From: a virus
Lineage: Duplodnaviria > Caudoviricetes
Direction: 5' to 3' (one strand)
Virus record (IMG/VR): IMGVR_UViG_3300020045_011116
Coordinates: 1 to 38,558 of that record
DNA: 38,558 nucleotides
The position numbers and the translations under genes were made by a program. Below, piece after piece: positions 3 to 38,558 of the stretch (position 1 is the stretch's first letter; each line of letters starts with the position of its first letter). Below the pieces are notes generated by a model, which was given only the letters and a program-made list of their open reading frames with translations, did no database searches and was not told where the DNA came from.

Positions 3-38
3 TTCAATGAATACAAACAACAAACTACGTTATTTTAA
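3..38 (+). CDS. 3' end of a truncated ORF (...FNEYKQQTTLF*), cargo of the leftmost cassette; C-terminus reminiscent of phage DNA methyltransferases
   Basis: Frame 3 is open from the window edge to TAA 36-38; product guess rests only on the QxTLF-type ending. Confidence 0.3.
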   Translation, partial: FNEYKQQTTLF

Positions 39-111
39 AAGTGCGGTGGCTTTTTTCTTTTTGTTTTTCCTTCACGGATTTTCAATTGGAACACGTCAGC
101 AAGGCATTTCA

Positions 112-206
112 TATAACGTTTTGCAGATTTGCGTTTGTGTGCCACGCAAAAATGTTTATTTCAAGGCACACTGTTTATTGGCACATAACGCAAATGTGCT
201 GTTATA
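112..206. repeat. attC-like imperfect inverted repeat 1
   Basis: Left arm TATAAC-GTTTT-GCAG-ATTTGCGTT-TG-TGTGCCA (112-144) pairs with right arm TGGCACA-T-AACGCAAAT-G-TGC-T-GTTATA (178-206). Confidence 0.85.
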
Positions 207-218
207 GGATAGTTAAAA

Positions 219-380
219 ATGAAAATTGATATGCACATACTTAAATCGAAAACCGTTTGCCATAACAGCGAGAAATTCCTGATAATGGTAGGACACAGAC
301 ATTGGAACTTAGGATTTCAAATACAAGACTGGGGAATAAGAATAATGCTGATATGGTGGCACGTATGCTTTCATTTTTAA
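219..380 (+). CDS. 53-aa hypothetical cassette protein MKIDMHILKSKTVCHNSEKFLIMVGHRHWNLGFQIQDWGIRIMLIWWHVCFHF
   Basis: Translated by hand (below the ORF-track cutoff); fills the space between the two hairpins. Confidence 0.6.
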   Translation: MKIDMHILKSKTVCHNSEKFLIMVGHRHWNLGFQIQDWGIRIMLIWWHVCFHF

Positions 381-385
381 TTTCC

Positions 386-504
386 TATAACGGTTTGCAG
401 ATTGGCGTTGTTGCCTCACAAATGTTTAATTGAAACACTAAACTTGATAATATGGAAAATGATAATTTGAAAACGGAAAGCAATAACGCCAATGTGCTGT
501 TATG
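386..504. repeat. attC-like imperfect inverted repeat 2
   Basis: Left arm TATAAC-GGTTT-GCAG-ATTGGCGTT-G-TTGC (386-414) pairs with GCAA-T-AACGCCAAT-G-TGC-T-GTTATG (480-504); same architecture as repeat 1. Confidence 0.85.
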
Positions 505-736
505 TGCAGTGCCATTGCCTTGCCCATTTTGCGGAGCGGAGGCTAATAAGGATAAGGTTTGGATGGATGCAGTATTTTATATTCAATGCTCGAATACTGA
601 TTGCGTGGCACAACCTTCAATTAGCGTAAAAGCTAAGTGCGTAGAGAATAAAGGTGATACGATTACATACAGCCCATTATGGGAAGATGCAGAAGCGGAG
701 GCAATAGCTAAATGGAACACGAGGCATTGCACATAA
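452..736 (+). CDS. Lar-like (restriction alleviation) zinc-ribbon protein, cassette cargo
   Basis: LPCPFCG...IQCSNTDC...AIAKWNTR matches the Lar family pattern. Confidence 0.7.
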   Translation: MENDNLKTESNNANVLLCAVPLPCPFCGAEANKDKVWMDAVFYIQCSNTDCVAQPSISVKAKCVENKGDTITYSPLWEDAEAEAIAKWNTRHCT

Positions 737-788
737 CATTGTATATGTATTACATCACATTTAACTAATTGATTTAAAATTAATTATT
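723..788. other. Candidate attI-like primary recombination site
   Basis: Terminal core CATAAC (732-737) is followed not by a hairpin arm but by short palindromes (ATGTA-T-TACAT 744-754; TAATTGATTT/AAATTAATTA) just before the recombinase ATG. Confidence 0.5.
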
Positions 789-1616
789 ATGGATATTTCT
801 GCTCACGCTATCTTCTTTGAACAGGAAATGAAACGAAGAAACTTTTCAATTCAGACCATTGAAAACTATTCGTCATGCTTGAAAAAATTCTTTAGTCAGT
901 CAAAATCTGACCACCCAAAAAATATTCACGAAAAAGAAATTCGTGAGTTTTTAGGAACGTTTGATGAACCAAATACACAAAGAGGTTACCACTCTGCAAT
1001 AAAAAAGTTTTATGAAGTTTGCATGAATCAAAAAGATAAATTTCGTTATATTCCTTATGCTAAAAAATCAAATAAATTACCAATAGTTTTATCAGTTGAC
1101 GAAATTCAAGCAATGTTTAATATGTGTGAAAACTTGAAACATAAAGTAATTTTAGGAATACTTTATTCGTGTGGTCTTCGTGTTTCTGAATTAATCAATT
1201 TGAAATGGTCACATATTGACAGGGGTAGAATGATAATAAATATAATTCAGGCTAAAGGCGCGAAGGATAGACAGGTTGCTTTACCGCAAAGTTTAATTCC
1301 ATTGCTTGAAAAATATTTTTTTAAATATAATCCTAAAGTATATGTTTTGAATGGTCAGAATTTTCCACAATATGATGAGCGAAGTGTTGGTAATGTAATC
1401 AAACAATTAGCAACAAAAGCTGGAATTAAAAAGAGGGTCTATACTCACTTAATAAGACATTGCACATTCACTCATCTCGTTGAGCTTGGCACGGACATTA
1501 ATTTAATTCAGAAAATAGCAGGACATAGTAACGTAAAGACTACTAATATTTACTGTCATATTTCAGACAACTTAATCAGTAAAATTCAATCGCCATTAAA
1601 TAATATTAAACTTTAA
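789..1616 (+). CDS. Tyrosine recombinase/integrase with N-terminal SAM-like domain
   Basis: Catalytic set visible: GLRVSE (R), KGAKDR (K), HLIRH (HxxR), AGH (H), TNIY (Y); N-terminal RNFSIQTIENY motif. Confidence 0.95.
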   Translation: MDISAHAIFFEQEMKRRNFSIQTIENYSSCLKKFFSQSKSDHPKNIHEKEIREFLGTFDEPNTQRGYHSAIKKFYEVCMNQKDKFRYIPYAKKSNKLPIVLSVDEIQAMFNMCENLKHKVILGILYSCGLRVSELINLKWSHIDRGRMIINIIQAKGAKDRQVALPQSLIPLLEKYFFKYNPKVYVLNGQNFPQYDERSVGNVIKQLATKAGIKKRVYTHLIRHCTFTHLVELGTDINLIQKIAGHSNVKTTNIYCHISDNLISKIQSPLNNIKL

Positions 1617-3339: not shown

Positions 3340-3509
3340 AAAAACAATTAATAATTATTTTAACCATTTTAGTGTTTACTTATTTATTATTTTCATTTGT
3401 AAAAAATGATTTTAATACTAGCAATTGGTTAATAGTAGATAGACTCGGTCTAGTACTTTCATTAGGTATTACATATCCGCTTTATAAACTAATGGAATTA
3501 AATAAGTGA
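3336..3509 (+). CDS. 57-aa small membrane protein
   Basis: Hand translation MKKQLIIILTILVFTYLLFSFV...; ATGA overlap. Confidence 0.6.
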   Translation: MKKQLIIILTILVFTYLLFSFVKNDFNTSNWLIVDRLGLVLSLGITYPLYKLMELNK

Positions 3510-23970: not shown

Positions 23971-24506
23971 TTCCTCCTCTGTAAAATTTTATCAATCATA
24001 TTTTTGGTTACACCAAATTTATCACCAAGCATTTTTCTTGTTAATACAAATGGCTTATAGGTTTTTCTTATTTCTTCAACATTTTCTTTATTTAGTTTCG
24101 AGTTCCCGTTTTTTTCACCAAAAGAATTTCCTAAAACCAGTGCCGAATGCGTACTGTTTTCTTTAGGCGTACACCATTCTAAATTAGATAATTTGTTATT
24201 TAGCTTATTACCATCAATATGATTGACTTGTGTTTTTCTTTCTGGATTTGGAATAAATATTTCAGCCAAAGCCTTATGAGCAAATACGCATTTTCGTTTA
24301 CCATCTTTTATTACTACATTGTATTTGTAACCCCAATGAGAATAGCAGTTTTGAAGTATTCTCTCTTTTTTAGTGCAGAGGCTTCCTTGTTTAGCTGGCC
24401 TTATTTTTTCCAAAGACTTTATTTCTCCAGATATATTTATTTGATACTCGCCTTCAAGTCCGATTATATCATACCATTTATTTTCTAATTCCATAATTAC
24501 TCTCAC
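23961..24506 (-). CDS. NUMOD4-HNH homing endonuclease
   Basis: WYDIIGLEGEYQINISGEIKS (NUMOD4); VNHIDGNKLNNKLSNLEWCTPKENSTH (HNH); GEKNGNSKL plus HTH. Confidence 0.93.
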   Translation of the reverse strand: MRVIMELENKWYDIIGLEGEYQINISGEIKSLEKIRPAKQGSLCTKKERILQNCYSHWGYKYNVVIKDGKRKCVFAHKALAEIFIPNPERKTQVNHIDGNKLNNKLSNLEWCTPKENSTHSALVLGNSFGEKNGNSKLNKENVEEIRKTYKPFVLTRKMLGDKFGVTKNMIDKILQRRNWA

Positions 24507-38438: not shown

Positions 38439-38558
38439 ATGAAAAAAACATTTAATCAATTAACTGTTGGGGACTTTATTTACGAGGTTTATATGAATGA
38501 TATGAGCTATAAAAAAATGGAAATAAATAAAGTTGACTCAAAATTAATATACTTTGAT
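38439..38558 (+). CDS. Truncated hypothetical protein (MKKTFNQLTVGDFIYEV...)
   Basis: Open to the window edge; same leader as the previous gene. Confidence 0.55.
   Translation, partial: MKKTFNQLTVGDFIYEVYMNDMSYKKMEINKVDSKLIYFD

Follow-up and report, generated by a model that had tools for sequence, protein, structure and literature searches.

Integrons are the closest described system to the locus analysed here. The I2 helix of integron integrases and the extrahelical bases of their attC sites have been defined and their phage origin discussed (PMC4792948, PMC7790495, PMC2095811), and I2 is reported to be necessary for cassette capture by IntI1 (PMC7790495). Both I2 and cassette-type recombination of single strands are said to be exclusive to integron integrases, and the relation of I2 to the extrahelical bases is treated as a chicken-and-egg problem for which a viral origin has been speculated (PMC4792948, PMC7790495). 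Integrons occur in Bacteroidota (PMC8618304) and, among six phage attC sites tested by Qi et al. in 2023, P12002L_attC1 was the only one that IntI1 did not recombine (PMC9892861). We analysed the IMG/VR virus record IMGVR_UViG_3300020045_011116, a contig of 38,558 bases that is taken here in its full length (the window), in which two imperfect hairpins (H1 and H2) lie directly 5' of a gene for a tyrosine recombinase. As judged from sequence comparison, these hairpins are probably the joints of gene cassettes, and the adjacent recombinase is likely to bind their folded + strand and to cut it integron-style within the TAAC of the 5' arm, between AA and C (the AA-C step).

The original prediction, made from the letters of this DNA alone, was that both hairpins share compensatory changes, a bulge and a G/G mismatch, and that a folded single strand is recognized as for attC. 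The stem change is present and compensatory, with T130-A192 in H1 corresponding to G404-C490 in H2, and lies within stems of 9 bp (127-135/187-195 and 401-409/485-493). In both hairpins, as had been proposed, five nucleotides face a single T beside the core (118-122 versus T200 in H1, and 392-396 versus T498 in H2); in the predicted fold the first G of the five pairs with this T, and a bulge of 4 nt remains. A G/G mismatch also follows the 3-bp GCA/TGC stem in each (G126/G196 and G400/G494). H1 has an extra T136 ahead of G137.T186, a single T that is not common to the family described below, and H2 has G410.T484. Folded as DNA, the + strands gave z values of -3.14 (H1) and -3.20 (H2), equalled by one and two of 200 shuffles, respectively. 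The - strands folded less well (-2.61 and -2.40), with the AAC/GTT core open; with wider flanks the fold of H2 is weaker (z -1.53). The common pattern of the 5' arm occurs twice in the window, versus 0.00 expected. However, the arms of H1 and H2 are nearly identical (90% over 30 nt, and 95% over 21 nt), so the pair yields only one compensatory event, and the irregularities common to both are explained by shared ancestry and are not independent evidence. Because of this kinship, a larger set of sites was built.

Loci were found with an alignment of 40 of the 120 listed homologues of the recombinase, whereas a search with the single protein retrieved nothing. The set anchored on the recombinase gene comprised 160 loci, 80 viral and 80 metagenomic, each group being the best 80 of a longer list, and 161 loci entered the motif scan. 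In a first scan, which allowed arm offsets from -3 to 7 and required at least 14 matches plus a paired base outside the core, we obtained 107 candidates (not de-duplicated), with an offset of 4 in 64 and of 3 in 25. This clustering at 3-4 indicates that the asymmetric bulge is conserved across the family, as 5 versus 1 or 4 versus 1 nt (3-4 extra nucleotides in 89/107). A rescan by motif, with no pairing test (TAACG and two further bases in the 5' arm, GTTR and three further bases in the 3' arm) and with 6 ambiguous sites excluded, gave 163 sites on the + strand and none on the - strand in 468 kb upstream of the recombinase genes, and three sites, with none on the reverse strand, in 648 kb downstream. 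Relative to the recombinase gene, the sites thus keep to a single side and a single strand. A separate, pairing-based detector gave 361 matches against 10 on the reverse strand; its third match in the window, at ca. 24078-24197, was discarded as due to chance, because its score is close to the threshold, it falls within an open reading frame (ORF) of the opposite strand, and this detector does return reverse-strand matches.

From the motif-picked sites we retained 87 non-redundant representatives (arm identity below 80%), and covariation was evaluated by mutual information with average product correction (MI-APC), shuffles, slid registers and counts within lineages. The 13 top-ranking of 703 column pairs by MI-APC were all predicted stem pairs, and second among them was the column of T130-A192/G404-C490, which holds TA in 35 sites, GC in 15, AT in 12 and CG in 5 (67 paired, versus 29.5 expected). 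A MAFFT alignment was made of 53 sites, including both window hairpins and 51 of the 52 representatives of the long class (24 short ones and length outliers were left out). It had 89.0% of paired cells against 66.1% in shuffled alignments, 252 changes on both sides of a pair against 92, and a covariation score of 0.563 against 0.155, none of which was reached in 500 shuffles; slid registers scored 0.085-0.110. RNAalifold recovered the same helix. As a control for kinship, hairpins were grouped by their loop sequence alone into 24 lineages with 89 members, within which 36 of the 46 double changes replaced a Watson-Crick pair by a different one (one third expected by chance); a further 30 single changes broke or restored a pair, and another 13 were to or from G.T. 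Within the lineage of H2 itself, the locus L179 has T-A where the window has G-C. The significant covariation anticipated for a larger alignment was therefore found, and the structure of the stem is conserved above its sequence.

The irregularities did not all fare equally. At the G/G column, 58/87 sites have a Watson-Crick pair and only 9/87 have G/G (33/189 with the pairing-based detector), a C/A mismatch occupies the following column in 14/87, and of 62 well-registered sites, 37 have a pair in each of the two columns. A mismatch at either column is tolerated, not required; H1 and H2 have theirs by descent, and these counts rule out G/G as a conserved recognition feature. Conversely, G+1 opposite T-1 reaches 0.85-0.95 in the seeds, neither base being required for selection. 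Counting from the core G, the inner arm shows G.T at position 11 in 129/189 sites, and its 3' base there is T in 94%. In the outer arm, formed by the two ends of a cassette, T occupies position 11 in 175/175 cases, with G opposite in 78% and A in only 4%. The conserved irregularity, which was not part of the original prediction, is therefore a T opposite a base other than A, mainly G, at position 11 of both binding arms. The profiles of the inner and outer arms agree at each position, as would be the case for a pair of binding arms in inverted orientation. In a duplex, this T always pairs with A, so that the avoidance of A on the far arm can be understood only for a strand that is folded. We found no conserved extrahelical bases, and the ungapped register pairs across 19 columns in most sites. 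Wobbles in the stem are also directional (5'G.T 64, versus 8 T.G, 6 A.C and 16 C.A), and the + strand folds better in 74/87 sites, by a mean of -2.28 kcal/mol, with the core closed in 29/87 predicted folds against none on the - strand. The mismatches and the strand bias would fit recognition of single-stranded DNA.

An in-frame ATG lies in the loop of 99/162 long hairpins and of 5/116 short ones. H2 is long and starts the Lar-like gene at 452, and H1 is short, which accounts for their correctly reported sizes of 119 and 95. Starts inside loops use two of the three frames almost exclusively (40 and 53 versus 6). The same leader peptide encoded in the hairpin (ending in NNANVLL; window 452-500 and loci L001-L055) begins many unrelated proteins.

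Comparisons between loci show, as far as sequence can, that the hairpins are joints of swappable one-gene cassettes and that each hairpin travels with the gene downstream of it. Pairing of a unit's own ends, i.e. the bases after GTT against those before the AAC of the next site, is 0.79-0.85 at positions 2-6 (n=95), versus 0.26-0.50 (n=139) for the in situ alternative, in which the bases before the hairpin's own AAC are used. The window from 388 to 737 matches positions 3001-3350 of L023 at 96%, and both flanks differ; in exact searches of viral contigs the Lar cassette was found only in this contig, and the start of cassette 1 gave no matches. In L023, the TAAC at the end of the Lar cassette has neither a hairpin nor an ATATGTA motif after it (3350-3400); it is perhaps a second type of attI or a secondary site. 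After the tail at 34-117 comes H1 in the window, an attI-like site in L113, and different hairpins in L122 and L031. Likewise, contigs of sequencing runs X1, X3 and X4 diverge from the window at 117-118, and one contig of run X1 spans 113-398 and differs immediately before. Identical units of hairpin plus gene occur in different order in L112/L118 and L115/L120, and loci of the L106-L121 group have an identical right side and different DNA on the left, up to TAAC. Among 31 groups of repeated cassettes, 25 were unchanged, five differed in the downstream site only, one in both, and none in the upstream hairpin only. Own-end pairing, shuffling and junctions thus indicate a unit formed by the hairpin and the downstream gene, with the joint in the TAAC of the 5' arm; by analogy with attC, the crossover would fall at the AA-C step, i.e. 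between 116 and 117 for H1 and between 390 and 391 for H2. In L123, the same cassette appears three times in one array, each time before a different site.

At the end of the array, ca. 55 nt before the recombinase gene, lies a fixed site of the type TAAC-N4/5-ATATGTA (here 734-749), which a loose motif found in 131 of the 141 loci with enough upstream DNA. In the window, this attI-like site showed no significant fold (z -0.11/-0.15 as RNA).

The recombinase carries the RKHRHY catalytic residues of IntI, and its best sequence match in the PDB is VchIntIA (2A3V, E 2e-29). Nevertheless, it does not have the I2 helix, an insertion of ca. 20-25 residues: only 21 residues, versus 64 in 2A3V, separate the matched blocks, the predicted structure has no helix between residues 180 and 197 (mean predicted local distance difference test score, pLDDT, 79), and W157 of VchIntIA aligns with I153. 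It scored below the cutoff of all NCBIfam models, including those for integron integrases (TIGR02249, 176.4 versus 265 bits) and for XerC/XerD/XerA (NF040815, 192 versus 220; TIGR02225, 159 versus 330; TIGR02224, 145 versus 335). Around more distant recombinases (below 45% identity, 61 genome loci), the attI-like motif and the upstream hairpins are mostly missing, and the detector gave 17 matches upstream on the + strand and 16 downstream on the - strand. Several of these loci from Bacteroidota (L260, L249, L277, L280 and L294, among others) have their matches downstream and on the opposite strand, which is a different layout. The cultured Polaribacter phage Leef_1 (L220, 3800-6843) has a related recombinase (33.6%), three detected hairpins, small genes and an attI-like site.

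How such a site might operate can be outlined from these arms. A tyrosine-recombinase site consists of two inverted arms, 6-8 bp apart. The + strand would fold during replication or by cruciform extrusion into a two-arm site, with two monomers binding the arms; the outer arm (GTTA...) and the inner arm (G-C/A-T-W...) would point outwards from a spacer of 6 nt on one strand and of 9-10 nt on the cleaved strand, which contains the bulge. Strand choice, for which attC has its extrahelical bases, would fall to the bulge and the G.T pairs. The + strand would be the counterpart of the attC bottom strand. A single cut at the AA-C step would be followed by exchange, the partner being a second hairpin or the attI-like site as a duplex, and, because the spacers share only the C, one strand exchange, resolved by replication, is expected. 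Recombination between two hairpins, or between a hairpin and the attI-like site, would excise a circle whose own ends complete a longer outer stem, and this circle would then insert again, for which the attI-like site in duplex form is the most likely place.

Several observations weigh against this reading. The I2 helix, reported to be necessary for cassette capture by IntI1, is absent. The excised circle was not seen in four sequencing runs, which showed only shared pieces and no clean excision joint or circle junction; none of them contains this phage, so they are no evidence either way. The motif derives from seeds selected by pairing in the same loci, with columns 6 and 14 fixed by the motif itself, and the register is hence partly circular. 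Two of the five measures in the MAFFT alignment failed to beat the shuffles: pairs with a change on both sides (13 versus 12.6; 316/500 shuffles) and further pair types (48 versus 46.5; 165/500). The core is shut in just the 29 of 87 predicted folds mentioned above, and four of the five downstream-only changes come from one phage lineage. Moreover, a single crossover point does not account for the many unrelated genes that have the same hairpin body at their head: the body of H1 heads other genes in 7 loci, bodies at least 80% alike to that of H2 occur in 19 distinct contexts elsewhere, and even the 84-base tail (34-117) is common to cassettes with different genes. A second route is therefore needed, such as a rare exchange at the 3' arm or replacement of the cargo. 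Cassette shells do appear, from the sequences compared, to be refilled with new cargo; L004, for instance, has the hairpin and both end sequences of cassette 1 around a different interior. A motif of the GTGCGGTGG type (window 41-49; cassettes of L060-L219) is enriched in the last 100 bases of cassettes, with 15 occurrences versus 2 in four times more interior sequence, and sits near the start of the shared tails.

Since the + strand is also the sense strand, the G.T bias and the covariation are also compatible with a hairpin selected mainly as RNA, for translation control, processing or termination at the head of each cassette, while the neighbouring enzyme would use just the short core as a duplex for recombination. 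The strand with the better fold is the one this would require, G.U is a pair typical of RNA, both hairpins of the window also fold as RNA (z -3.9 and -3.5), and folding would bury the early codons of the many genes that start within a long loop. We nonetheless consider this explanation improbable, because short hairpins keep the stem without a start codon, the mismatch at position 11 is present in the outer arm too, and the wobbles are nearly all 5'G.3'T; furthermore, a core in duplex form, having a single arm and a spacer that varies, would be an incomplete site for a tyrosine recombinase (PMC4792948).

Comparably unlikely is that the folded strand just mimics a duplex, as does the attP of the CTX phage for XerCD, so that pairing matters and the bulge and mismatches are tolerated but not read. 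The enzyme has neither I2 nor the tryptophan of VchIntIA, there is no conserved extrahelical base, G/G is dispensable and a precedent exists (PMC4792948, PMC7790495), yet the bulge and the avoidance of A at position 11 are too constant for tolerated noise. We give still less credit to the covariation being a by-product of template-switch repair of imperfect palindromes, with the sites as inert repeats moved by homologous recombination. Near-identical bodies common to many cassettes would fit this, as would the many double changes without a sampled intermediate and the 30 single changes that break or restore pairs. However, such repair would erase mismatches, yet G.T at fixed places persists; the junctions, both those between unlike hairpins and those at the attI-like site, lie inside TAAC, and the sites are limited to one side and strand of the recombinase gene.

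Table 1. Features of the cassette region in the window
Feature	Position	Strand	Details
Tail of a further, upstream cassette (3' part)	34-117	+	Truncated by the contig start; ends in the TAAC core of H1
Hairpin 1 (H1)	112-206	+	95 nt, short class; loop without start codon
Cassette unit 1 (H1 and 53-aa ORF)	117-390	+	Own ends 201-218/374-391 complementary
53-aa ORF	219-380	+	Likely coding
Hairpin 2 (H2)	386-504	+	119 nt, long class; ATG 452 and first 15 codons inside
Cassette unit 2 (H2 and Lar-like gene)	391-736	+	Own ends 498-513/723-738 complementary except G509.T727
94-aa Lar-family restriction-alleviation-like protein	452-736	+	Starts inside the loop of H2; its stop codon is the TAA of the core that follows
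attI-like fixed site	727-749	+	Cassette-derived arm; putative AA-C step between 736 and 737; 5-nt spacer; conserved ATATGTA arm at 743-749
275-aa tyrosine recombinase	789-1616	+	R131-K156-H220-R223-H246-Y255 intact

Both cassettes of the window (Table 1) carry small genes. The product of the 53-aa ORF has no match in Pfam or NCBIfam, and four of five substitutions in runs X1/X2 are synonymous third-position changes. The Lar-like protein narrowly exceeds the cutoff of PF14354 (28.7 versus 28.6 bits), falls below that of TIGR03655 and scores 0.94 to Lar clusters in the Atlas; nine of ten substitutions in its gene are at third positions. Elsewhere the window contains genes typical of tailed phages, for terminase, a packaging protein, tape measure, a CHAP lysin-like protein and DnaB. 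One ORF (38440-38558) runs past the end of the contig and another enters at base 1 and continues through H1 to 207; the contig may be circular, and its termini have no overlap. The genomes with the closest recombinases are mainly bins of Chitinophagaceae and Flavobacteriaceae, with few other labels, and from these labels the host is probably a member of the Bacteroidota. Positions 380-790 had no blastn match among annotated phages, and Rfam no match over 1-800, with three chance hits elsewhere in 1-2000, so the hairpins match no family of structured RNAs known there. None of the sequencing runs screened for this phage contains it (best share, 0.06).

At about even chances, in our estimate, phages of Bacteroidota run their own cassette system with a second structural code for recombination sites in single strands, in which a spacer bulge of 3-4 nt and a T.G mismatch at the same position of both arms are read by a recombinase without I2, orthogonally to IntI1. 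This would be a living form of integron of phage origin, devoid of I2 and of extrahelical bases and with reusable hairpin-and-tail shells, and would resemble the missing intermediate that has been postulated between Xer and IntI. The recombinase would most probably read the bulge and the G.T at position 11, not G/G. A phage system with covarying hairpins, without extrahelical bases and I2, makes the question of their origin testable and, if the proposal holds, shells with different genes would show how new cassettes arise. The system would let phages swap counter-defence genes, such as the Lar-like gene here, and a structure-defined site orthogonal to IntI1 could serve as a tool. It is common, with an estimated 1,500 or so metagenome stretches that have the recombinase pattern, and Leef_1 offers a cultured phage-host pair with this layout, ready as an experimental model. 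The literature covered, which left out subscription journals and bioRxiv supplements, gave no account of it as a system; contributed here are the quantified covariation, the discounting of G/G, the mismatch at position 11 and the connection with the IntI1 test in which P12002L_attC1 was not recombined (PMC9892861).

That site is a hairpin of this family, a single site with a very short loop (L222, 30055-30009), and was cloned in the orientation that corresponds to the + strand of the window (PMC9892861). By the detector, phage P12002L has 11 family hairpins and no match to the recombinase, and the "divergent" attC2 of the same report is the tail end of the same methyltransferase cassette (L222, 30055-29200, - strand). 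Qi et al., whose subject is phage clusters of attC sites lacking integron integrases (CALINs), treated P12002L_attC1 as a classical attC without an integrase, and describe no cognate recombinase, attI-like site or site anatomy (PMC9892861).

The CTX phage attP, an integrative mobile element exploiting Xer (IMEX), likewise pairs a folded single strand with I2-less tyrosine recombinases and one strand exchange (PMC4792948, PMC7790495), the use of a single strand being our interpretation for the hairpins. Nevertheless, CTX borrows the host XerCD at dif and mimics a duplex, whereas here there is an enzyme in cis, many cassettes, and a conserved bulge and mismatches. With attC the family shares an AAC/GTT core that closes an imperfect hairpin with a variable loop, structure and covariation prevailing over sequence, and a bias in energy and G.T towards one strand, here the one that junctions suggest is recombined. 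The direction of the G.T bias and a difference of ca. 2 kcal/mol are the same as for attC bottom strands, for which 1.24 versus 0.39 G:T and 2.12 kcal/mol are given (PMC5027507). As in the integron platform, there is a non-folding attI-like site at the 5' end of the recombinase gene, with a variable cassette at a fixed point, and in site orientation the array is read away from the integrase. In contrast, attC carries close to its L box a conserved set of two or three extrahelical bases and lies 3' of its own gene, while the hairpins here have no such bases and lie 5' of theirs; VchIntIA has I2, and the enzyme here does not. Also unlike attC, the spacer is strongly asymmetric, with the bulge on the putatively cleaved arm, both arms have T opposite a non-A base at position 11, and cassette ends are complementary over at least 12 bp. 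The genes point towards the recombinase, often starting inside the hairpin, and so a Pc promoter near the attI-like site could presumably not transcribe them. The attC analogy of the original prediction thus stands for the logic of the site and fails for membership, given the lack of extrahelical bases, the position relative to the gene and the enzyme without I2: these hairpins work like attC, and are not classical attC sites.
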